DNA of 64,000 bases from Deltaproteobacteria bacterium. GTDB lineage: Bacteria > Desulfobacterota > GWC2-55-46 > DRQE01. The stretch covers positions 6,094 to 70,093 of the forward strand of contig JAOUFM010000006.1 in NCBI GenBank assembly GCA_029858205.1. Direction: 5' to 3'. A program made the translations under genes and the position numbers. The notes beneath the pieces are model-generated. The model worked only from the letters and a program-made list of their open reading frames with translations, made no database searches and was not told where the DNA came from. Shown here one piece after another: positions 632-43,073 of the stretch (position 1 is its first letter; the number at the start of each line of letters is the position of its first letter).

Positions 632-3235
632 TCAGTCGCCAGCGAGGTCCTTTAATTCGTTTAGTATGTTTAGCGCCTCGATGGGCGTAATCAAGTCTGC
701 GTCCACTGCCTTGAGGCGTTCCTTTAGGGCATCTGTTTTTTTGTATGACAGAGGAAGATTACCCTGCCTTGCGTCGTCCTTGCCGGCAATCCTCGGAGAG
801 CCGGAAGAGTTAAGTTCGCCGTTCTCGATGTTACGAAGTATTTCCTTTGCCCTCGCGATTACCTCTTTTGGCAGCCCCGCAAGCTTCGCTACCTGTATGC
901 CGTAGCTTTTACTGGCCCCTCCCGGGACGACGCGGCGAAGGAAGGTGATCTTGTCGCCCCATTCCTTTATAGCCATATTATAATTTTTGACGCGCTCCTT
1001 TGTCAAGGAAAGCTCTGTGAGCTCGTGGTAATGGGTGGCGAAGAGAGTTTTACAGCCAAGAGAGACTGAGTCGTGAAGATGCTCTGCAACCGCCCAGGCG
1101 ATGCTAAGGCCGTCGAATGTGGCCGTGCCCCGCCCTATCTCGTCGAGGATGACGAGGCTTCTTGGAGTTGCGTTATTTAAGATGTTCGCTGTTTCGTTCA
1201 TCTCGACCATGAAGGTGGAATGTCCTTTGGAGATGTCATCCGACGCGCCTACGCGGCTAAAGATCCTGTCCACTATGCCGATAGTAGCCTTCTTTGCCGG
1301 AACAAAGCAGCCGCACTGCGCAAGTATCGTGATTAACGCGACCTGTCTTATGAAGGTCGATTTGCCTGCCATGTTCGGGCCGGTTAGTATGACGATTTGC
1401 GTGGCCACGGTGTCGAGTGCAGTGTCGTTTGGCACGAACTCGGCCCTTATTCCAGCCTCTATGACCGGGTGGCGGCCTTCCTCTATAGTAAGCTCGGTGC
1501 CGCTGTTTATCTTAGGCTTTACGTAGTTATTGTCCTCTGATACCGACGCAAACGATATGAGGGAATCAAGTGTAGCCACGGCCTCGGAGGTCTTCTGTAT
1601 CCTTTCAACATAAGCGGCCACTGTCTTTACGATATCGGAGAAAAGCTCGGCCTCGAGGCTCTTTGCCTTTTCTTCTGACGTTAGTATTTTCGATTCCCAC
1701 TCTTTAAGCTCAGGAGTTACGAACCTCTCGGCGTTCGCGAGTGTCTGCTTACGCGAGTACTCTGGCGGCAGACAGGCGTTCTTCATCGCGCTCTGTGTTA
1801 TCTCGATATAGTAGCCAAAAACGCGGTTATACCCGACCTTTAGCGTATTGATGCCGGTTTTTTTTCTTTCCGAGCTCTCGAGCCCGGCTACCCACTCTTT
1901 TCCTCCTCCGCCGATCTTTCTAAGTTCGTCTAACTCGGCCGAGTACCCGTCGGCGATAACGCCGCCGTCCTTTAGCGTTGCAGCTGTGTTTTCTCTAACA
2001 GATCTTGCGATGAGCCCTGCTGCCTCCGGCACCGCGTCGATAGAACCGGTAATATTTTTTATCAGCGGCGAAGAAAAGTTTTTACTAAGCAGTTCTTTTA
2101 GTTCCCCTGCCCTCTCAAGCGATGCCTTTAGCGCCACCATATCGCGCGGCGAGGACATCCTTACCGCAACCTTTGCGCCAAGGCGCTCGAGGTCATAGGT
2201 CTTATCCAGGGTGTCGGCAGCCTCTACCCTCGCCCGCCGCGCCTCGATTAATTCGCCCACAGCGTCGAGCCTGGCCTTTACCCCGGCTTCGTCGATAAGC
2301 GGGCTGATGAGCCAAGAGCGAAGCGTCCTTGCGCCCATGCTCGTACGCGTTCTGTCAAGGTGGCTAAGGAGCGAGCCTTTTTTGTCGGTTGACCTTGAGT
2401 TTTCAATTAGCTCTAGACTTTTCCGCGTTGCCGCGTCCATCATCAATGCGCTGTCGGTTCTAAGACGGACAAGCTTTTTTACGTGCGTAAGCTCTGTCTT
2501 CTGCGCGTCTTTAACGTACAAGAGCAGCGCCCCTGCCGCTACGGTAGCCGCGCCTTCTGTATCAAAGCCAAAACCCTCGAGGCTTACGACCCCGAAGTGC
2601 TCCTTTAGTGCCTCTATAGCCGCTTTCTTCGAGAACTTATCCGGCGCTGCTATGATAAGCGGCCCTGCCCCGTTATCTTCCGCTCTTGCAACAGCCGCTT
2701 TGTCGCCAACGATTATCTCCGAGGGCGTAAGCTTTGCTATCTCGTCCTCGAGCACTGCGGCGCTCTCGAACTCCGAGGCCCGAAACTCCCCTGTTGATAC
2801 GTCCATGAAGGCAATCCCGTGCGTCTTGCCGCTCACACTTATTGCGGCGATAAAGTTATTCAACTTCGCATCTACTATTTCGTCCTCGAGCGCCGTGCCC
2901 GGGGTGACAACCCGCACGACCTTGCGTTCGACAACGCCCTTTGCCTCTGCCGGGTTCTCGGTCTGCTCGCATATTGCGACCTTGTGCCCTGCCTTCACGA
3001 GTTTTGCGACATATAAAGCCGCTGCATGATAGGGCACGCCGCACATGGGGATTTTTTTCTCCTTGTCCCTCGATGTAAGCGCTACCCCCATGACCTTCGA
3101 GCCCACGAGCGCGTCCTCGTAGAACATTTCGTAGAAGTCACCCATACGAAAGAACACGACCGCGTCCTTGTGCCTCTCCTTTATCTCGAGGTACTGGCGC
3201 ATCGCAGGGGTTGCGTTTTCGATATCCATAGCCAT
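632..3235 (-). CDS. mutS: DNA mismatch repair protein MutS
   Basis: 868-aa ORF with an N-terminal mismatch-binding motif (TPAMRQYLEIK...GDFYEMF), a Walker A (GPNMAGKST) and a full-length MutS architecture. The start is probably the ATG that overlaps the upstream stop. Confidence 0.95.
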   Translation of the reverse strand: MAMDIENATPAMRQYLEIKERHKDAVVFFRMGDFYEMFYEDALVGSKVMGVALTSRDKEKKIPMCGVPYHAAALYVAKLVKAGHKVAICEQTENPAEAKGVVERKVVRVVTPGTALEDEIVDAKLNNFIAAISVSGKTHGIAFMDVSTGEFRASEFESAAVLEDEIAKLTPSEIIVGDKAAVARAEDNGAGPLIIAAPDKFSKKAAIEALKEHFGVVSLEGFGFDTEGAATVAAGALLLYVKDAQKTELTHVKKLVRLRTDSALMMDAATRKSLELIENSRSTDKKGSLLSHLDRTRTSMGARTLRSWLISPLIDEAGVKARLDAVGELIEARRARVEAADTLDKTYDLERLGAKVAVRMSSPRDMVALKASLERAGELKELLSKNFSSPLIKNITGSIDAVPEAAGLIARSVRENTAATLKDGGVIADGYSAELDELRKIGGGGKEWVAGLESSERKKTGINTLKVGYNRVFGYYIEITQSAMKNACLPPEYSRKQTLANAERFVTPELKEWESKILTSEEKAKSLEAELFSDIVKTVAAYVERIQKTSEAVATLDSLISFASVSEDNNYVKPKINSGTELTIEEGRHPVIEAGIRAEFVPNDTALDTVATQIVILTGPNMAGKSTFIRQVALITILAQCGCFVPAKKATIGIVDRIFSRVGASDDISKGHSTFMVEMNETANILNNATPRSLVILDEIGRGTATFDGLSIAWAVAEHLHDSVSLGCKTLFATHYHELTELSLTKERVKNYNMAIKEWGDKITFLRRVVPGGASKSYGIQVAKLAGLPKEVIARAKEILRNIENGELNSSGSPRIAGKDDARQGNLPLSYKKTDALKERLKAVDADLITPIEALNILNELKDLAGD

Positions 3236-5463
3236 CACACTATCCAGTGCGTCTGTTCGTAGTCGGTATCAGGAGCCTCTATCGAGAGATACCCTCTTGC
3301 CGGCCAGCGCTCGCTTTTTTTGCCGCTCTCGTAAGAGACCTCTATAAAGAGCCTCAGCTCGTCCCTTGCCTTTGCGCCGAATACGGAAAACGGCACTGCC
3401 ATCTCGACAACGCTTTGCGACTTGATTGTCTCTAACTGCACGGCATCTCCCCATGTATTGGAGCCGACGTCTTTTTGATATATGTTCGCCGAAGAGCTTG
3501 CTCCCTCGACATTCACCTCAATTTTAACCTCGCGCGGGCTAAGCGCCGTTATCTCAAAGCTCCAGGGCTTCTCGTACACGCCGTCGCTGTCAGTGAGTTC
3601 TTTTTTGTAATCGAACCTGAGAAACAATCTATCGATGCTAAAGCCGTAGAGTATTTTACCCAGCAGCCCGCCCTTTAGTTCCGAGACCTGGTGCATTGCG
3701 CCGCCTGTCTTTTGCGCCTCTATAGCTGCGGCAGAGAGCCATTCGAAATAATTTGTGACCTTGCCGTCTATCACAGGTTCCATAAAGGCGTGCGGCAATG
3801 CAGAGGGCACGAACCCGCGTTCTTCGGAGATGATGGGTATGTCGAGTGATGAAGGAGGCTCTTCGCCAAGGAGCGCGTAGACCTTTTTAAGATAAGACCG
3901 GAAAAGAAGGTCGAACTGTTTGTCGTTCATGGATGCGTGCTCGTCGCCGTACCACCAGAACCAGTCGCTGCCTTCCGCCGCGTAGAGCGCGTTCCACGCG
4001 CCTTGGATGTCCTCGTTCTCAGAGCTCGACCGTAAGGCGTGTTTCTTTATCATGTCTCTTGCGCCGCTTATCGCGTCCCACGCCGAGTTATCCTCCTGAT
4101 GCCCTATCCAGATCTTGAAGTTCCCGTTTATCCACGACCCGCTCGCTATGCGCTCAAGGGGCTCAGCTGAGCCGTAAGAATTAAGGAACTCGGAAACAGT
4201 TACCGTGCGAGCGAAATCGGAGTCGGAAAGACGCGAGTAAAGTTCGCGGAAAAAATCGTTACCGTCGTTAGGATAGGACTCCCATGCGTTCTCGCCGTCG
4301 AGTATTACCGATACAAGAGAGCGTGCCGGGTCTTTTGTGACAGCGTGTATCTTTTTAATCCGCTCCATGAAATCAGCGGCAGCGTCCTTTGCCCCGAACT
4401 TCGAGTAATCGAAGCCGATTCTGTCGGAGATGACGCGGTCGCGAAATATCATGTTCATGCTGGAAGCGCCCTGCCCGACCCTGTAGGGCTTGTATATCAT
4501 GTCGGTTGTCGGATGTCCGTACTTATCTCTCTCGGCCCTCTGCCTAAGAGAGGCCTCGAGTATCGCCTCGTCGGTAGCTATCCAATTTATCCCTTCCTCT
4601 GCCATTATCTTGACGGCCTCCATACTGACCGAGCCTTCGCTTGGCCACATGCCTTTTGGAGCAAAGCCGAATGTGTCCTTGAAAGACTTGATTGCCCTTC
4701 TCACGTGCTCTCTTGCGTCCTCTGGCGTCAGCACGCGTGTTTTAGGGAGCGAAACTCCCGGCATTGCTTCCCTTGCGCTGTCGCTATCGCATAGAAGCGG
4801 CAGTATCGGATGAAAGTACGGCGAGACGGTAAGCTCGATTTGCCCCTTCTCGGCCATTTCCTTATACTTGGGGATGATGGCTCGCATGATAGCCGTCTGC
4901 TTTATAAGGAGCTTTGCCTTGTCGTCTTCGCTAAAGTTCCTGCCCTTTTCAGTCAGGGCTTTTAAGAATTCGTCCTTTTCGCGAAGCATTGGGTCTATCC
5001 ATGAGAGGAAAAATAGCACTTGCAGATCGCGGTACTCTTCAGTTGAGAAAAACCTTATTGCTGCCTCGGTATCTTCCCTTAGCCACGAGAACCCTCTCTT
5101 CACAAGAAGAGACCAGTACCGGCTAAACGGCCTTATGACAGTTTCCCAGTTGGCCTGGAAAAAACTTTCCAGTAAAAAGAACTTGTCGTCGGCGGTAAGC
5201 TCTTCCGAGCTCTTCGCAACGACTGCCCGGTATTTGTCGTTTACCGTATCGGACTCGTAATCCCTTATCTGTTCGATGAGAGACGGAACAAGGTTGAAGG
5301 TCTGCTTTATGCTTGGGAAGCCCTCGAGCATGGAGGGCATGTCGAGGTAGTCTTTGGTGCCGTGGAGAAGCACCCATGGAAGTATGTACTCGCCGCTAAA
5401 AGGGTCTTTGTATATCGGCTGGTGCATATGCCATACAAAGGCTATGTTGAGCCGTTTATCCAT
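3235..5463 (-). CDS. Glycoside hydrolase family 57 protein (alpha-amylase/alpha-glucanotransferase-like) with a C-terminal extension
   Basis: The NIAFVWHMHQPIYKDPF...ILPWVLLHGTKDY motifs are typical of GH57. The start is most likely the internal MDKRL, immediately after the upstream stop. Confidence 0.8.
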   Translation of the reverse strand: MDKRLNIAFVWHMHQPIYKDPFSGEYILPWVLLHGTKDYLDMPSMLEGFPSIKQTFNLVPSLIEQIRDYESDTVNDKYRAVVAKSSEELTADDKFFLLESFFQANWETVIRPFSRYWSLLVKRGFSWLREDTEAAIRFFSTEEYRDLQVLFFLSWIDPMLREKDEFLKALTEKGRNFSEDDKAKLLIKQTAIMRAIIPKYKEMAEKGQIELTVSPYFHPILPLLCDSDSAREAMPGVSLPKTRVLTPEDAREHVRRAIKSFKDTFGFAPKGMWPSEGSVSMEAVKIMAEEGINWIATDEAILEASLRQRAERDKYGHPTTDMIYKPYRVGQGASSMNMIFRDRVISDRIGFDYSKFGAKDAAADFMERIKKIHAVTKDPARSLVSVILDGENAWESYPNDGNDFFRELYSRLSDSDFARTVTVSEFLNSYGSAEPLERIASGSWINGNFKIWIGHQEDNSAWDAISGARDMIKKHALRSSSENEDIQGAWNALYAAEGSDWFWWYGDEHASMNDKQFDLLFRSYLKKVYALLGEEPPSSLDIPIISEERGFVPSALPHAFMEPVIDGKVTNYFEWLSAAAIEAQKTGGAMHQVSELKGGLLGKILYGFSIDRLFLRFDYKKELTDSDGVYEKPWSFEITALSPREVKIEVNVEGASSSANIYQKDVGSNTWGDAVQLETIKSQSVVEMAVPFSVFGAKARDELRLFIEVSYESGKKSERWPARGYLSIEAPDTDYEQTHWIV

Positions 5464-25729: not shown

Positions 25730-26227
25730 ATGGATCCGGTACATTTTTCAGCAGAAGAAATACTCGATATGGCCATCCGCATAGAAGAGAACGGGGAAAA
25801 GTTCTACGCCGCTGCGGCAAAGAGCGCGAAGAACCCGAAGCTTAAGGAACTCTTCGAGTTCCTCGTGAAAGAAGAACTAAAGCACGCAGCGTACTTCGGA
25901 AAACTTAAAAAGCTCGTTGCCGAGTACACCCCGCACGGCGCGGCAGACCCGTACCTCGACGAAGCGTCCATGTACATAAAGGCACTCTCGGATGCAAAGG
26001 TCTTCCATAGAGAGACCGACCCTAAAGAGCTTGCCAGAAAGACCGAGAACGAGGAAAAGGCAATTGATTTCGCAATAGAGGCTGAAAAGGAATCGCTCCT
26101 CTTCTACTACGAGATACAGAAGTCGATACGCGATAAGGACAGAAAGATAGTAGACGACATCATCATAGAGGAAAAGGACCACCTCCAGCGCCTTACAGCC
26201 ATTAAGCACGAATTCTACGGCAAATAA
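25730..26227 (+). CDS. Ferritin-like diiron domain protein (rubrerythrin-family core without a rubredoxin domain)
   Basis: Two ExxH motifs (EELKHAAY, EEKDHLQR) in a four-helix-bundle spacing; 165 aa. Confidence 0.7.
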   Translation: MDPVHFSAEEILDMAIRIEENGEKFYAAAAKSAKNPKLKELFEFLVKEELKHAAYFGKLKKLVAEYTPHGAADPYLDEASMYIKALSDAKVFHRETDPKELARKTENEEKAIDFAIEAEKESLLFYYEIQKSIRDKDRKIVDDIIIEEKDHLQRLTAIKHEFYGK

Positions 26228-27822: not shown

Positions 27823-29145
27823 GTGGCAAAAAAAAGAAGAATCATCATCATGGGGGCCGCGGGGCGCGACTTTCATAACTTTAACGTCATCTATAAAAAC
27901 GACCAGACTGTAGAGGTCGTTGCCTTTACCGCAGCGCAAATCCCATACATAAGTAACCGCACGTATCCCCTTGCCGGAGATCTTTACCCGGACGGCATAC
28001 CGATATACCCCGAAGAACAGCTCCCGGAGCTTATAAAGCGCCTTAAGGCCGATGCCGTTGTGTTCTCGTACTCGGACATCTCGCACATAGACCTGATGCA
28101 CAAGGCCTCGGCAGTAATCGCGCTCGGCGCTGACTTTATCCTTCTTGGCTCGACAAGGACCATGCTAAAGTCCGTAAAGCCGGTGATATCCGTGTGCGCT
28201 GTGAGAACGGGCTCCGGGAAAAGCGGTGTTACGAAGCTTATCGTAAAAAGGCTCTCGACCCTCGGGCTAAAGACCGTGACGGTGCGCCACCCCATGCCCT
28301 ACGGAGATCTTAGAAAAGAACGCGTGCAGCGCTTTGCAACTACCGCTGATATGACGGAGGCCGGATGCACGCTCGAGGAAATGGAGGAGTACGAGCACCT
28401 GATAGAGGCCGGGATAGTCGTCTACGCAGGCGTTGATTACGCGGCCATACTAAAAGAGGCCGAACAAGAAGCTGACGTGATAGTGTGGGACGGCGGCAAT
28501 AACGACTTTCCGTTCTTCGAGCCGTCATTGGAGATTGTGGTTACTGACCCGCTTCGCCCCGGGCACGAGATAACGTATCATCCGGGCGAGGTAAACCTAA
28601 GGCGCGCAGACGTCATTATTATAAACAAGGTGAACACAGCGTTAACTACCGACGCCGAGACCGTAAGAAAAAACGCCGCTACCGTCAACCCGAAGGCCGT
28701 TATAATAAGTACCGAGTCAGTCGTGACCGTCGACGGCGCGCTCGACATAGCCGGGAAAAAGGCCGTTATCATCGAGGACGGCCCGACCCTCACCCACGGC
28801 GAGATGACCTACGGCGCCGGAATAATTGCGGCAAAGGAAATGAAGGCAGTGCCTGTAGATGCCAGAGAGTACGCCGTCGGCGCGATAAAGGACGTATTCG
28901 CGAAGTATCCGGCCCTCGATTCCGTAATACCGGCCATGGGGTACTCGCCGGAACAGGTCAAGGATCTCGAGACAAGCGTAAACAATACGCCTGCCGACAT
29001 TGTCATGATAGCGACCCCGGTGGACCTATCGAGAATAATAAAGTTCAACAAGCCAGCGGTACGCGTAAGGTACGAGGTAAAGGAAACCTCGGAGCCCGGG
29101 CTTGGCGGCATCGTAGCGGACTTTATCGCATCGTTTAAGAGCTAA
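27823..29145 (+). CDS. P-loop NTPase with an N-terminal Rossmann-like domain (cyclic 2,3-diphosphoglycerate synthetase-like / DUF1611-related)
   Basis: RIIIMGAAGRDFHNF (Rossmann-like), a variant Walker A (CAVRTGSGKSGVT) and later DGGNNDFPF. The family call is from memory only. Confidence 0.4.
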   Translation: MAKKRRIIIMGAAGRDFHNFNVIYKNDQTVEVVAFTAAQIPYISNRTYPLAGDLYPDGIPIYPEEQLPELIKRLKADAVVFSYSDISHIDLMHKASAVIALGADFILLGSTRTMLKSVKPVISVCAVRTGSGKSGVTKLIVKRLSTLGLKTVTVRHPMPYGDLRKERVQRFATTADMTEAGCTLEEMEEYEHLIEAGIVVYAGVDYAAILKEAEQEADVIVWDGGNNDFPFFEPSLEIVVTDPLRPGHEITYHPGEVNLRRADVIIINKVNTALTTDAETVRKNAATVNPKAVIISTESVVTVDGALDIAGKKAVIIEDGPTLTHGEMTYGAGIIAAKEMKAVPVDAREYAVGAIKDVFAKYPALDSVIPAMGYSPEQVKDLETSVNNTPADIVMIATPVDLSRIIKFNKPAVRVRYEVKETSEPGLGGIVADFIASFKS

Positions 29146-37121: not shown

Positions 37122-39254
37122 CTAATGCCCGGCTGCCCCGGCAGGTGTTGCGTGATGCGATTTTGCGTGGTGAACGCCTATTTTACGCTCTTTTAAGGCG
37201 TTTAGCCCCTCCTCCACATAGGCCTTAAGCTCCTTTGCCATTTTGCCCCTGCGCTCGGTTTCCTTACCCTCGGGTATGACAACGGACTTTGGCGGGTGCT
37301 TTGTGTCGTATTCATAGAGCACGGGCTTTTCCTTGGGTGCAACAATGTATATCCTGTTGTCCTCTACAATAGCGACATTTTCATCCCCGCCCGAATGCTT
37401 TATAACGGCAAAGCCCTTATCTTTCAATGCCTGGGAAAATAGATTTCTGCCCCAGCCCTGGTGCGGCGCATCGCTTCCGATGAGAGCAAGAACGCTTGGC
37501 CCGATGTCTACATGGCTTGCAACCGTATCGCGTCTTACGCCATGCGCCTTCAAAAGTTTCGGAGAATAGAAAAGAAGCGGCACATGGAGCTTATCGAGGC
37601 TCATGTGCGTTATCGGCCACTCGGTACCTATGCCGTGGTCCCCGGTTATGACAAAAAGCGTATTGTCGAAATATTTTTCCTTTGACGCGGCCTTGAAGAA
37701 CTCGCCAAGGGCCCAGTCCGCGTACTTCATGGCGTTGTATCTATTCTCCATTGCATCGCCGGACTTTATACGCTCAAACGGCAACGGCGGCAGATTAAAC
37801 GGCGAATGGTTCGTAAGCGTAAGGATTGCGCCGAAAAACGGCTTGTCCTTCGACATGTTCTTGAATTCCTCGTTGGCGCGCATGAAGACGTCGTAATCGG
37901 CGACACCCCACACCGGGTCGACGAACGTGGGGTTCACGTAATCGTCCGTGCCAACGAACTTATTTATGCCGTGCTGCCTGAAAAATCCCTCTTTATTGTC
38001 CCAGGAGAAAAGCCCGTTATAAAGGAAGATGCTATCGTAGCCTTTTGACGTAAGAATCGTCGGAAGCCCCGAGAACTCCTGGTACGCGTCCATGGTCTTC
38101 ATTAGATACTCATGCCCTGGAAGGTTCGGAAAAGACGTAAGCGAGGCGAACACGCCCTGGTGCGTATGAGAGCCGTTCGAGAAAGCGCGCTCGAAAAGCA
38201 CGCCGTCCTTTGCAAGTTTATCGAACGAAGGCGTTATGTTGTGCTCATCTCCAAGCGAGCCAACGAGACGGCCCGAGAAACTCTCCATTAGTATTATGAC
38301 GACGTTTACGGGCTTCTCCGGCTTTTTCACGAGATACGCATTGGCGGTCTCGGGGCCTTCTTTCCTAAGAAGAGGCAACTCAGCGCTCGCAAGGTCGGTC
38401 TCGGTAGTCTGTATAAGCATGTCATGCGTGATTTTTTCCGCGTCCTTTGCCGAATACGTCTTAGTCCAGTAATTCTCCTTTGTCGAAAGCTTTTCAAGAG
38501 AACTCCTGCCAAGCGTGAACACGGCATTTAAGGCAAGGTTATTTGCAAATGCCTCGTCCGAAAAATACGCATCCCCCCACCTAAGCGGCTCCTTGTAGAA
38601 CCCTCCCCGCATGCCAAACACCATGAGCGTGATAACGACAAACGTGCCGGCATACCCTGCTATGCGGTGATTTCTCGTTAGTTCCGGAATGTTGGTCTTT
38701 GAGCCAAGTAATTTCTTGTAAAGGACAAATACGGCAAAGGAAAAGAGCGCCATCACCACGGCCCAGAACAAGGCGTACTTCACTACCGGGTAGCCTTCCC
38801 ACACCATGCCACCTACTATCTCCGGGTGGGTCGCGTACTCGAATATGGCGGAGTTAAAGCGCATCTGAAGTTCGCGGTAGAACTCTACCTCTCCAAGGCA
38901 GAGAAAGAACAGGGCCGAGAAAAACGCGGTAAATGCCGCTAGTATGTGCGGCGAGAACCTCCGTGGAACAAAAAGCAAAAGCAATAGAAGCGGTATCAGA
39001 AGATACGAACTTATAGCGATATCGAACCTTAGGCCGTAGAAAAAGCTCTTCAAAAGAAGCGTAACCGGCAGGTGCTCGGCCAAACCGTAATTCCTGTAGA
39101 GCATGACGGCCCTTGCTGTCTCGAAGACGGCTATGAGCAGCACATACGCGGCGAGCACGAAATACACTTCGCGCCTTATTATATGACCGAGAATCGAGTT
39201 TGATTTGGTATTGCCCATGATGTTTGCTTGCGCGCGGAACAGTTCCCAGCGCAT
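37122..39254 (-). CDS. LTA-synthase/sulfatase-family membrane protein (alkaline-phosphatase superfamily)
   Basis: An N-terminal polytopic membrane region, then a sulfatase-like domain (VVIILMESFSG...NGSHTHQG...TGDHG). The start overlaps the hemerythrin stop (TGATG). Confidence 0.7.
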   Translation of the reverse strand: MRWELFRAQANIMGNTKSNSILGHIIRREVYFVLAAYVLLIAVFETARAVMLYRNYGLAEHLPVTLLLKSFFYGLRFDIAISSYLLIPLLLLLLFVPRRFSPHILAAFTAFFSALFFLCLGEVEFYRELQMRFNSAIFEYATHPEIVGGMVWEGYPVVKYALFWAVVMALFSFAVFVLYKKLLGSKTNIPELTRNHRIAGYAGTFVVITLMVFGMRGGFYKEPLRWGDAYFSDEAFANNLALNAVFTLGRSSLEKLSTKENYWTKTYSAKDAEKITHDMLIQTTETDLASAELPLLRKEGPETANAYLVKKPEKPVNVVIILMESFSGRLVGSLGDEHNITPSFDKLAKDGVLFERAFSNGSHTHQGVFASLTSFPNLPGHEYLMKTMDAYQEFSGLPTILTSKGYDSIFLYNGLFSWDNKEGFFRQHGINKFVGTDDYVNPTFVDPVWGVADYDVFMRANEEFKNMSKDKPFFGAILTLTNHSPFNLPPLPFERIKSGDAMENRYNAMKYADWALGEFFKAASKEKYFDNTLFVITGDHGIGTEWPITHMSLDKLHVPLLFYSPKLLKAHGVRRDTVASHVDIGPSVLALIGSDAPHQGWGRNLFSQALKDKGFAVIKHSGGDENVAIVEDNRIYIVAPKEKPVLYEYDTKHPPKSVVIPEGKETERRGKMAKELKAYVEEGLNALKERKIGVHHAKSHHATPAGAAGH

Positions 39255-39649
39255 CAGGATTTAAGTATGTGCCTGCCGAGCTTCTTGTCCTCTACGCTTA
39301 TATGGTTGGCCAGCCAGTCAAAGATATGCGTTTTCAAGTGCTCCATATCGAAGTTGCCACCACTTTCAAGACGCTTTCTGATATCCGATATTTCTTCTAT
39401 AAAGTGATGGTGCTCCTCGGTGTGCGCAACACTTTCGGCAAAAGAGGTATCGCTCATGGCCTTTTCCTCGTCATGAAAATGCACGACAGCGTAGTCGTCT
39501 AGAAAATCGAGGAACTTGATTGTCGTTGCCATATCCGCATGCGCCTCTACGGCATTCAGAAGCGCCTCGACCTTTTGAATAAGCTCGAGGTGCTGCTTGT
39601 CCTGCCACTGCACGCCTGTTTCCAGGTCCTTGGAGAACTCTATCTTCAT
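39254..39649 (-). CDS. Hemerythrin-like (bacteriohemerythrin) protein
   Basis: H...HFxxEE...H...H spacing (VVHFHDEEKAM...HTEEHHHFIEE...HIFDWLANHI); 131 aa. Confidence 0.7.
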   Translation of the reverse strand: MKIEFSKDLETGVQWQDKQHLELIQKVEALLNAVEAHADMATTIKFLDFLDDYAVVHFHDEEKAMSDTSFAESVAHTEEHHHFIEEISDIRKRLESGGNFDMEHLKTHIFDWLANHISVEDKKLGRHILKS

Positions 39650-39773: not shown

Positions 39774-40298
39774 TTATTGCTGCGCTGGCTTTGGCTCGAC
39801 AGGGCCGTTTGCCTGCAACCATGCCCCGAACCCTCCGAGAAGGGCCTTTACGTTCTTGTAACCGTGTTCGTTAAGGTAGAGCGCCGCACCGGCGCTCGAG
39901 TGTTCGTCGGGTCACGTGCAGTACGTGACTATCAGCGTCCTTTTGTCAAAGGGCAGCAGAGAAAGCTTGTTGCCAAGCTCCGTGTACACTATCCTAACAT
40001 CGCCCTTTATCTTTATCGTGCTGCCTGCGTACGAAGTAGGCGACCTCAAGTCGATTATCGTTACAGGCACGCCTTGCTTCTGGAGCTTTAACACCTCTTC
40101 GGCGCCGATACGCGCTACCACCGCAAGATCTTCCTTGGCGTAGACCTTGTAGGGCGCTTCCTGAGAAGCAGCGCCGGGGGCTGCCGAACCAGGCTGCACT
40201 ACCAGGTTACCGGGGGTATTATCCCCTGCCCAGGACTCATGCGCCAACACAAGAGCCATGGCCGCGGTCAAAGCAAAAGATATCCATTTTCTCATCAT
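39774..40298 (-). CDS. Periplasmic rhodanese-like sulfurtransferase, probable selenoprotein (in-frame UGA at 39912-39914 read as Sec)
   Basis: Signal peptide (MMRKWISFALTAAMALVLAHESWA), then a rhodanese fold ending ...TLIVTYCT-TGA. The same frame continues PDEHSSAGAALYLNEHGYKNVKALLGGFGAWLQANGPVEPKPAQQ* with no start codon or SD, and this matches the conserved rhodanese C-terminal segment. Total length about 174 aa. Confidence 0.6.
39879..39897 (-). other. Candidate bacterial SECIS hairpin
   Basis: In the mRNA, UGA + 14 nt, then GAGCGCCG-GUG-CGGCGCUC (8-bp GC stem with a loop containing GGU). Spacing and loop composition match those of bacterial SECIS elements. Confidence 0.45.
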
Positions 40299-40507
40299 CC
40301 ACCTCGAGCGGTATTTTATCTGTTCCTTACAGGCCCTTTAACGTCATGCCCGGGACAATCCTTGGCAACCCTCGCTACAGTGAGCCACCCTCGGAACCAT
40401 GAAACGGTTACACATGGCAATCACCTCCTTGGAACATGCGTCACATATATTATTATAACGCAAAAAAAGGCTTTTGGAAAGCCTTTTAGAGGCTAAATGC
40501 GCAGCTA

Positions 40508-41050
40508 TTAACGGGACTCCTTCTCGACACTGAACTCCATGAAGTCGCACCAGAAGCCGTCCTTTAAAAGCGCCTCGTGCTCCCACCTTAGAAGCTTAAG
40601 GTGCCCCTTCTCCATCTCGAGAAGGTTCGTAAGAAACACCTTTTGTTCCGGGGTTTCGGCCTCGTCCCTTAGCATCCTGTCATAGAAGGCAACGGCGTGC
40701 TCCTCGCTCTCTATTGCAACCGCTATCGCGCCTTCGTCAGACGGATTTTTCTTCAACTTCTTTATAAGCTCGTTTTCATCCGGGAATATGGCAAGCGCCT
40801 TCGTTCCCCTTACGACCGCCCCTGCCTCCTTTGCTTCCTTATAGCCTTTCCACGTGCCGGAACCTTTAAGAGAAGCGATGATGCCGGTTATGACGTCTAT
40901 ATGCTCGAGTTCCTCGGAAGCAAGATGGTTAAAAACGTTCTTGCCGTGCTCGTCCTTGGTCATCTCTGCCGCGTGCTTATAGAAACCGTATCCGTTCATC
41001 TCTGTCTTGTAAGCAATGGAAAGCTCATCCGCCAATTTGTTTTTAGACAT
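40508..41050 (-). CDS. Rubrerythrin-like ferritin-fold diiron protein lacking a rubredoxin domain
   Basis: ExxH pairs (ASEELEHIDV, ESEEHAVAFY, EMEKGHLKLL); 180 aa. Confidence 0.75.
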   Translation of the reverse strand: MSKNKLADELSIAYKTEMNGYGFYKHAAEMTKDEHGKNVFNHLASEELEHIDVITGIIASLKGSGTWKGYKEAKEAGAVVRGTKALAIFPDENELIKKLKKNPSDEGAIAVAIESEEHAVAFYDRMLRDEAETPEQKVFLTNLLEMEKGHLKLLRWEHEALLKDGFWCDFMEFSVEKESR

Positions 41051-42528: not shown

Positions 42529-42648
42529 TTACTCGACCTCGACAAACGCCTCTCTGGTCGCAAAGCACTCGGGGCAGAACTCCGGGGGCTCCGGCCCTTC
42601 GTGCACATACCCGCACTCAACGCATCTCCATTTTTTCGCTTCCGCCAT
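42529..42648 (-). CDS. Stand-alone rubrerythrin-type rubredoxin-like domain protein (39 aa), not in the ORF track
   Basis: MAEAKKWRCVECGYVHEGPEPPEFCPECFATREAFVEVE* matches the C-terminal rubredoxin domain of rubrerythrins (WxCxxCGYxxEG..P..CPxC). It starts 2 nt after the bacterioferritin-like stop. Confidence 0.6.
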   Translation of the reverse strand: MAEAKKWRCVECGYVHEGPEPPEFCPECFATREAFVEVE

Positions 42649-42650
42649 AA

Positions 42651-43073
42651 TCAGTCGAGCACCGTCTCCCACTCATCGGCATGCCCTTCCTCGTCCTCGA
42701 GGATTGCCTCGAGCATGCATCTCGTAGTAACATCTCCGTGTTTGACGCAAAGTTCTATGTGCTTTTTATATCTCTCGATTGCCTCGTTCTCGGCCTCGAG
42801 GTCGTCCTTTATCATGTCCTTTAAGCTTCCGCCGCGCTTGGAGGGCGTGGGCTTTTGCACAGGAACGCCTCCGAGGTAGGCTATTCTCTCGGCCAGCATT
42901 TCCGCATGCTTCATTTCGTCTATGGCCGTTTTTTTGAAAATTTCGGCGATTGCCGGGCTCTCCATGCCCGAGCCCTCATAGTGGTGCCCCATGTACTGAA
43001 TAATGGCGCCGAGCTCGAATGCCCTGTCCAGGTTCAGCGCGTCTATAATCTCTTTGTTAACTTTCTTAGCCAT
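42651..43073 (-). CDS. Bacterioferritin-like protein (Bfr family, shortened)
   Basis: ...ELGAIIQY...IDEMKHAEML...AILEDEEGHADEWETVLD closely parallels the Bfr ferroxidase-centre motifs; 140 aa. Confidence 0.8.
   Translation of the reverse strand: MAKKVNKEIIDALNLDRAFELGAIIQYMGHHYEGSGMESPAIAEIFKKTAIDEMKHAEMLAERIAYLGGVPVQKPTPSKRGGSLKDMIKDDLEAENEAIERYKKHIELCVKHGDVTTRCMLEAILEDEEGHADEWETVLD

Follow-up and report, generated by a model that had tools for sequence, protein, structure and literature searches.

Does the TGA codon that interrupts a rhodanese-like gene of a Deltaproteobacteria bacterium terminate the protein, or is it decoded as selenocysteine (Sec)? The gene is found on the minus strand of a 64,000-nucleotide (nt) stretch of contig JAOUFM010000006.1 (positions 6,094 to 70,093, assembly GCA_029858205.1), referred to here as the window, and in the public record it is represented by a 127-residue product, MDH4227364.1, 'MAG: rhodanese-like domain-containing protein [Deltaproteobacteria bacterium]' (MAG, metagenome-assembled genome). 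A sequence-only reading of this DNA had proposed that the UGA is a probable Sec codon, and the comparative analysis described here supports that proposal: with a probability of about 0.9, the UGA at 39914-39912 encodes selenocysteine. The single gene would then specify a 174-residue exported selenoprotein of the rhodanese fold, with an active-site dyad formed by Cys127-Thr-Sec129.

The reading frame and its relatives

The annotated open reading frame (ORF) extends from 40298 to 39915 and closes with ...LIVTYCT at the TGA. The same frame continues beyond this codon for 45 codons, PDEHSSAGAALYLNEHGYKNVKALLGGFGAWLQANGPVEPKPAQQ (PDEHSS...PAQQ), until a TAA is reached, and within this segment there is no start that would yield an ORF of at least 30 residues. 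The Pfam profile PF00581 (Rhodanese) matches residues 66-162 of the read-through product with 40.2 bits, against a gathering cut-off of 22.2, so that one and the same domain extends across the TGA, which is codon 129. A terminator-like hairpin is placed after the TAA and not after the TGA; it was not picked up by a simple terminator scan. The sequence-only reading had described a 128-residue ORF ending at the TGA, a continuation that lacks a usable start and resembles the C-terminal part of a rhodanese, and a terminator behind the final stop, and each of these descriptions held when the minus strand was read directly and compared with Pfam. The parts of the gene on which the argument depends are as follows.

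39774-40298, minus strand: full coding sequence of the proposed selenoprotein, 174 codons including the UGA as Sec codon 129; single frame, with the Pfam Rhodanese domain running across the TGA
39813-40103, minus strand: rhodanese homology domain, residues 66-162, from PF00581 and rhodanese matches in the PDB (sequence, and fold of a Cys homologue)
39918-39920, minus strand: TGC codon of Cys127, first residue of the C-T-U dyad, kept in 79 of 80 relatives
39912-39914, minus strand: in-frame UGA, proposed to be read as Sec129; the same column holds TGA in 67 loci and TGC or TGT in 12
39879-39897, minus strand: predicted selenocysteine insertion sequence (SECIS) hairpin, 8-bp stem GAGCGCCG/CGGCGCUC with loop GUG; encodes S-A-G-A-A
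39776-39774, minus strand: true stop codon, TAA
39714-39750, minus strand: terminator-like 15-bp hairpin, then UUAUCAUUU; fold energy -30.5 kcal/mol, z = -4.5

Relatives were collected from a species-representative set in which one genome per species was scanned and in which the genome of the window is not included; 189 relatives were obtained, the best 80 of which were kept for counting. Among these 80, the column of the UGA is occupied by TGA in 67 and by a Cys codon (TGC or TGT) in 12, and the remaining relative, L063, has neither. One of the two search patterns demanded a Cys codon at this column, and therefore the share of TGA forms is, if anything, underestimated. An alignment with Cys homologues had been suggested earlier as a check on the Sec assignment, and Cys falls exactly at the U position in the 12 homologues with TGC or TGT. 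The same pairing was seen in a protein search, where six full-length homologues of 110-121 residues all read (I/V)TYCTCP[HN]E, and the UGA column holds Cys in each of them. A metagenome scan added one relative, 40% identical and of the Cys form. The residue corresponding to Cys127 is invariant in 79 of the 80 relatives and is missing from L063 together with the Sec/Cys position. This locus, an exported member of the family from a Blastocatellia MAG, reads Y-G-T-T-P-N-E around position 3286 and retains the rest of the domain and its signal peptide.

The TGA forms are phylogenetically dispersed, as they come from Acidobacteriota (mostly Blastocatellia, Pyrinomonadaceae), 'Deltaproteobacteria' and Thermodesulfobacteriota, Planctomycetota, Chloroflexota, the Cyanobacteria-related lineages Stenomitos and Obscuribacterales, and the cultured Firmicute Acetoanaerobium pronyense DSM 27512 (L049). 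Conserved sequences are recognized on both sides of the codon, TYCT before it and P-x-E, GGFxAW and PVEPK after it. The 41 residues that follow the UGA in the window share a mean ungapped identity of 57% with the 67 TGA-form loci, and the nucleotide differences from these loci are distributed over codon positions 1, 2 and 3 as 849, 711 and 1611, a third-position excess that amounts to a coding signature downstream of the UGA. Elsewhere in the window TGA behaves as an ordinary stop codon: it terminates 18 of the 57 long ORFs, without coding-like extensions, which indicates the standard genetic code.

The hairpin downstream of the UGA

The sequence-only reading had noted an 8-bp GC hairpin 14 nt past the UGA with the geometry of a bacterial SECIS, and this was confirmed both against a published model and by covariation among relatives. 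The bacterial SECIS (bSECIS) model (PMC13188914) consists of an apical loop of 3-9 nt on a stem of 4-16 bp, with a minimum free energy of at most -7.5 kcal/mol and a distance of 16-37 nt between the UGA and the loop. Within the first two positions of the loop there is a G, with G or U after it, in the pattern N1-G-[G/U]-N-N2, wherein N1 and N2 are paired (PMC13188914). The window hairpin, GAGCGCCG-GUG-CGGCGCUC, begins 14 nt past the UGA and can alternatively be drawn as a 7-bp stem with the loop G-GUG-C, which fits this pattern. With its loop of GUG or G-GUG-C, 8-bp stem, apical loop starting 22 nt past the UGA and energy of -15.4 kcal/mol, it lies within all four of the published limits. Folded alone it has a z of -3.7, and 2 of 200 shuffled sequences fold equally well.

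The conservation of this element was assessed in 68 TGA sequences, 66 of them distinct. The register of the hairpin is the same in all 68 (columns 16-38 past the UGA), and the five core pairs are present in 64 of the 66 distinct sequences. The pair of columns 21 and 33 changes from C-G to U-A in eight sequences, and both columns are synonymous third positions (AGC/AGU for Ser, GCG/GCA for Ala); column 24, a four-fold degenerate third position in an Ala codon, never varies. In the Acetoanaerobium locus (L049) the stem sequence is unrelated, yet the same hairpin shape and a GGU loop are found. Paired cells, double-change cells and the covariation score in the TGA forms all exceed those of 500 of 500 shuffles and of all slid controls. 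Among the 12 Cys forms, by contrast, pairing at the core columns is limited to 6-9 sequences and does not surpass that of shuffles. Likewise, the mean fold energy of the 63 nt past the codon is -18.9 kcal/mol in the 68 TGA forms as against -13.2 kcal/mol in the 7 Cys forms that were parsed, and where a TGA form and a Cys form encode the same residues (S-A-S-V-A in L011 and L019, respectively), the stem-forming codons are used in the TGA form only. Three Cys forms (L028 at 3229-3282, L055 and L057) carry a near-intact SECIS-type hairpin, which in L028 reads AGCGCC-AAU-GUGGCGC; this suggests a recent conversion from Sec to Cys. From the remaining Cys forms the hairpin has disappeared.

The window hairpin resembles the SECIS of the Escherichia coli fdhF type in that it lies just past the UGA, within the coding sequence and at the prescribed distance, and in that its small apical loop opens with G-U. 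It differs in having no sequence similarity to that element and no identified bulged U, and the binding of SelB to it is putative. A search of Rfam gave nothing above threshold. The stretch with the UGA and the hairpin (39855-39915, minus strand) was matched by the 'sucC RNA' family at 21.6 bits against a threshold of 50 (E = 0.056), a match that was set aside as a chance similarity between GC-rich hairpins.

If the UGA is decoded as proposed, the hairpin at 39897-39879 would act as the SECIS when the ribosome meets the codon, presenting its GGUGC or GUG loop. SelB with GTP and Sec-tRNA(Sec) would bind it and, competing with release factor 2, deliver selenocysteine. The hairpin would then be melted by the ribosome and the last 45 codons read, from which come the remainder of the active-site loop, the next helix and the GGFxAW...PVEPK end.

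Family assignment and rival readings of the UGA

The CxU form of rhodanese selenoproteins has been catalogued (PMC13188914, PMC9312934), and a UxU variant was reported in a rhodanese-related sulfurtransferase selenoprotein family in a metagenome study (PMC1976440), a family that is probably the same as that of the window protein. The earlier remark that rhodanese selenoproteins are known as a family, and that this gene is not new in kind, is thus borne out. The best match among the NCBIfam profiles is NF041203, 'rhodanese_LYCAU, rhodanese-related (seleno)protein', which is aligned over its positions 19-126 of 126, and the next is the GlpE model, with 38 bits. The window protein has in common with NF041203 a single rhodanese domain, a C-x-U motif at the active-site loop where the central strand ends, the C-terminal GGFxAW...PVEPK, and an N-terminal signal peptide as found in the deltaproteobacterial members. 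It differs in its motif, T-Y-C-T-U rather than L-Y-C-A-U, and in having an additional linker, rich in Pro, Gly and Ala and about 35 residues long, between the signal peptide and the domain, an unusual feature. Scores above the curated cut-off of 115 bits are reached by L001 (122), L008 (138.2) and L010 (125.7); exported forms from Acidobacteriota come close to it with about 114 bits (114.6 for L003 and 114.1 for L036), and the many cytoplasmic acidobacterial forms of 110 residues remain below it at 97-105 bits. The nearest relatives of the window protein are exported 'Deltaproteobacteria' proteins. Judged by profile and motif, the window gene is a divergent member of this known and curated selenoprotein family.

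Several observations weigh against reading the gene as an exported rhodanese selenoprotein. Its product reaches 76.6 bits with the NF041203 profile when Cys is written at position 129, or 69.7 with X, below the cut-off, and it is because of this low score that the annotation pipeline truncated it. No relative above about 50% identity was found in the species-representative and metagenome scans. Stretches of 54-76 nt around the window hairpin fold no better than shuffled sequences. The signal peptide was judged by rule and by homology, and we know of no family member that has been biochemically characterised, as far as reviews on selenoproteins show. Finally, neither selA, selB, selD nor tRNA-Sec was found in the 64-kb window (57 ORFs, searched with Pfam) or in 9 kb of contig past its right-hand end, a search that covered about 64 of the 491 kb of the contig plus those 9 kb.

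The loci of relatives were also inspected for signs of Sec decoding. A tRNA-Sec was not found in 60 relative loci, and selA, selB and selD were present in no locus that was fetched. Within the window a second selenoprotein candidate was not found, either among TGA-ended ORFs with in-frame extensions or among TGA-split frames outside long genes. On the acidobacterial chromosome of L056 a molybdopterin formate-dehydrogenase-like gene (approximately 1050-2829) carries a TGA at the classical CARV-U-HAPS site, and the TGA-form rhodanese (3001-3324) follows it at a distance of about 370 nt. This genome, at least, bears the signature of Sec decoding, which lends indirect support. In 11 acidobacterial loci (L056, L009, L018, L027, L039, L045, L055, L057, L061, L072 and L076) the cytoplasmic rhodanese gene follows a conserved run composed of a formate-dehydrogenase-like molybdopterin oxidoreductase, a GAF-domain protein and a pirin. 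The CARV-U-HAPS codon is visible in L056, and the flanks of the other 10 loci end before that codon.

Three other explanations of the UGA have to be considered. The TGA might be a sense codon, likeliest TGC or TGT for Cys, that was corrupted by mutation or by a sequencing or assembly error, so that the gene is either dead or really encodes a Cys protein. Cys forms of the family do exist, the step from TGY to TGA is a single-base change, and the public annotation takes the TGA as a stop; but 67 independent genomes have TGA at precisely this column and an intact, conserved coding sequence downstream, the window possesses the full SECIS hairpin that is typical of TGA forms and eroded in most Cys forms, and the same truncated product of 127 residues has been recorded from three contigs. 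This explanation is scarcely credible and is effectively refuted by the comparative data. Genuine termination, which would leave a functional N-terminal fragment of 128 residues and 45 downstream codons as an untranslated remnant, is hardly more plausible. It agrees with the annotated model MDH4227364.1, and some truncated product is to be expected wherever release factor 2 competes with SelB, as it does at every Sec UGA. Such a fragment, however, would be without the final third of the rhodanese domain and without the active-site loop after Thr128, the 41 residues downstream are among the best conserved in the family (GGFxAW and PVEPK are invariant) with substitutions biased towards third positions, and the terminator-like hairpin follows the TAA. 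Taken together, the 67 TGA loci, the coding signature, the standard genetic code and the three contig records make sequencing error, pseudogene formation and true termination very unlikely.

A little more room, though still not much, may be granted to read-through that inserts an amino acid other than selenocysteine, be it by a reassigned code (Trp or Gly) or by near-cognate or Cys-tRNA(Sec) decoding that places Cys or Trp at position 129. The Sec pathway can deliver Cys under selenium limitation, and the missing Sec machinery in the window and its 9-kb extension would suit such a reading. Against it stand the use of TGA as an ordinary stop in 18 of the 57 long window ORFs, the conservation downstream of a structure-dependent element with a SelB-type loop, and the identity of the alternative residue in the family, which is Cys and not Trp or Gly. 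Insertion of selenocysteine at position 129 is the reading that is followed below.

Active site, proposed export and meaning for the family

The sequence-only reading had placed Sec two residues after 'the catalytic Cys'. The spacing was upheld, but the identification of Cys127 as the catalytic residue may not hold, since alignments with GlpE place Sec129 on the catalytic Cys65. In a BLASTP alignment with E. coli GlpE (a GlpE sequence entered by hand was used in the alignments), Sec129 falls on Cys65, and Y-C127 appears as a two-residue insertion. The same register was obtained when the profile of the 81-sequence family was compared with GlpE by hhalign, with no gap from that position to GGFxAW, and the profile match to PDB entry 6mxv agrees with Sec129 at the canonical catalytic position. 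The other register is favoured by the match to BH2092 of Bacillus halodurans (3nhv; ITYCWGP), whose Cys falls on Cys127, and by an AlphaFold2 model of the Cys homologue P0002 (predicted local distance difference test, 75), in which the strand ends right before the first Cys, so that either residue may be the primary nucleophile.

Comparison with characterised and structurally known rhodanese domains places these residues in context. GlpE (PDB 1GMX) has the same fold and length as the rhodanese domain of the window protein, but it is cytoplasmic and Cys-based, with no partner Cys at -2 and the loop CYHGNS in place of U-P-D-E-H-S. PspE of E. coli and Sud of Wolinella (PDB 2jtq and 1qxn), which act in thiosulfate or polysulfide sulfur transfer, are exported single rhodanese domains like the window protein and give weak sequence matches to it; the relationship is distant, and both possess a single catalytic Cys and no Sec. 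The best single-domain match in the PDB is BH2092 (3nhv, 3o3w; E = 1.5e-13), an uncharacterised rhodanese that has I-T-Y-C-x-x-P in common with the window protein. It has Gly at the Sec/Cys129 site and a second Cys three residues beyond that, and it is not a selenoprotein.

In the classical thiosulfate sulfurtransferases the catalytic Cys starts a six-residue loop that forms a cradle of positive or neutral character for an anionic sulfur donor. Sec129 aligns with GlpE Cys65, but the P-D-E-H-S that follows is acidic; in the alternative register it is Cys127 that stands at the end of the strand. The active-site loop of the window protein, U-P-D-E-H-S, lacks the basic residues of the thiosulfate sulfurtransferases, and the pattern of the loop throughout the family is U-P-[DHN]-E-x-[ST]-S. 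A periplasmic redox or relay function is thus more probable than classical thiosulfate:cyanide transfer. Cys127 and Sec129 would constitute a two-residue redox dyad, to which three features point: each of the two is invariant, L063 has lost them jointly, and in the UxU variant, if it belongs to the same family, Sec is found at the first position as well. With Sec129 at or beside the canonical catalytic position and Cys127 as its partner, the protein could run through a selenenylsulfide cycle or serve as a persulfide or perselenide carrier. That it is a periplasmic protein of this kind, either a selenenylsulfide-forming redox protein or a sulfur/selenium relay protein, is inferred with much lower confidence than the identity of residue 129.

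The N-terminus, MMRKWISFALTAAMALVLAHESWA followed by GD, is organized in the n/h/c manner of Sec-type signal peptides (in this usage Sec denotes the secretory translocon), with MMRK, a hydrophobic core of 15 residues and HESWA; neither a lipobox nor a twin-arginine motif is present. Equivalent signal peptides are found in 16 relatives (L001-L004, L007, L008, L010, L013, L016, L022, L024, L030, L036, L048, L063 and L078), 14 of which are TGA forms. Alignments of NF041203 with L001, L008, L010 and L036 start at position 3-7, and the profile thus includes the signal-peptide region. The earlier prediction of export gains support from this pattern and from the relatives; residues 1-24 would route the protein via the Sec translocon, and the window protein would be an exported selenoprotein. 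The elements at the 5′ end of the gene are listed here.

40298 or 40295, minus strand: alternative ATG start codons, giving 128 residues to the TGA or, as chosen in the NCBI record, 127
40300-40305, minus strand: Shine-Dalgarno-like GAGGTG, separated by 1 nt from the first ATG and by 4 nt from the second, from direct reading of the sequence
40227-40298, minus strand: predicted signal peptide, residues 1-24 (MMRK / WISFALTAAMALVLA / HESWA), with predicted cleavage before GDN
40452-40480, minus strand: promoter-like site TTTCCA-17-TATAAT, 10 of 12 positions, consensus matches only

The promoter-like site overlaps in part the terminator-like hairpin (40487-40465) of the upstream rubrerythrin-like gene, and for this reason the rhodanese gene probably stands alone as its own transcription unit. 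Its neighbours are that rubrerythrin-like gene (40508-41050, minus strand), a hemerythrin gene (39254-39649, minus strand), a gene for an LTA-synthase-type sulfatase and housekeeping genes, and a ferritin-like gene with a separate rubredoxin-like mini-ORF (43073-42529, minus strand) is also present in the neighbourhood. No gene neighbourhood is common to the window and the exported relatives. In five 'Deltaproteobacteria' loci (L001, L002, L008, L030 and L048) a large hybrid histidine kinase with Cache, HAMP, PAS and receiver domains is encoded directly upstream of the exported rhodanese, and the window is without it. As the arrangement in the window is not conserved among relatives, the sole functional lead from context is a loose link with oxidative-stress genes.

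Some features of the surrounding DNA may be recorded in their own right. Diiron or oxygen-related genes within 17 kb around the selenoprotein gene comprise two rubrerythrin-like genes, the ferritin-like and rubredoxin-like pair and one hemerythrin gene (25730-26227 on the plus strand; 39254-39649, 40508-41050 and 42529-43073 on the minus strand). The pair has the appearance of a 'split rubrerythrin'. A 140-residue ferritin-like/rubrerythrin diiron ORF (43073-42651, minus strand) ends with TGA and is followed after 2 nt by a 39-residue ORF (42648-42529, minus strand) with a match to rubrerythrin's rubredoxin-like domain (PF21349, E = 7e-12). The diiron and rubredoxin-like domains of rubrerythrin are usually found on one polypeptide. 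Here UGA read-through was ruled out, as the stop is followed by 2 nt and an ATG in a different frame. A 440-residue ORF with no Pfam match (27823-29145, plus strand) lies between genes for a class-III aminotransferase and a proline dehydrogenase, surroundings that look like an amino-acid catabolic cluster.

A broader reading of the family can be put forward tentatively, and we regard it as possible but rather doubtful as a whole. Together with more than 60 mostly acidobacterial homologues that likewise score below the NF041203 cut-off, the window protein may belong to a Sec-dominated branch (TGA in about 84% of the forms) whose members are cut short by current annotation pipelines. Sec would here occupy the canonical catalytic position, with a resolving Cys at -2, and the rhodanese fold would serve as a selenenylsulfide oxidoreductase and not as a sulfurtransferase; in the present case the protein would be exported unfolded via the Sec translocon to the periplasm.

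The kind of protein is already catalogued, and knowledge in kind is unchanged. At the level of the single gene, MDH4227364.1 (127 residues) should be annotated as a selenoprotein of 173 or 174 residues, and the same truncation probably affects many homologues in Acidobacteriota and other phyla, because their scores lie below the NF041203 cut-off. At the level of the family, the analysis adds that Sec forms far outnumber Cys forms, that the register of the SECIS is fixed and kept via synonymous covariation, that there is an exported subgroup, and that, in the GlpE alignments, Sec is aligned to the canonical catalytic Cys. The family thereby offers a clean test case for the evolution of SECIS elements and for the role of a C-x-U dyad on a rhodanese scaffold.

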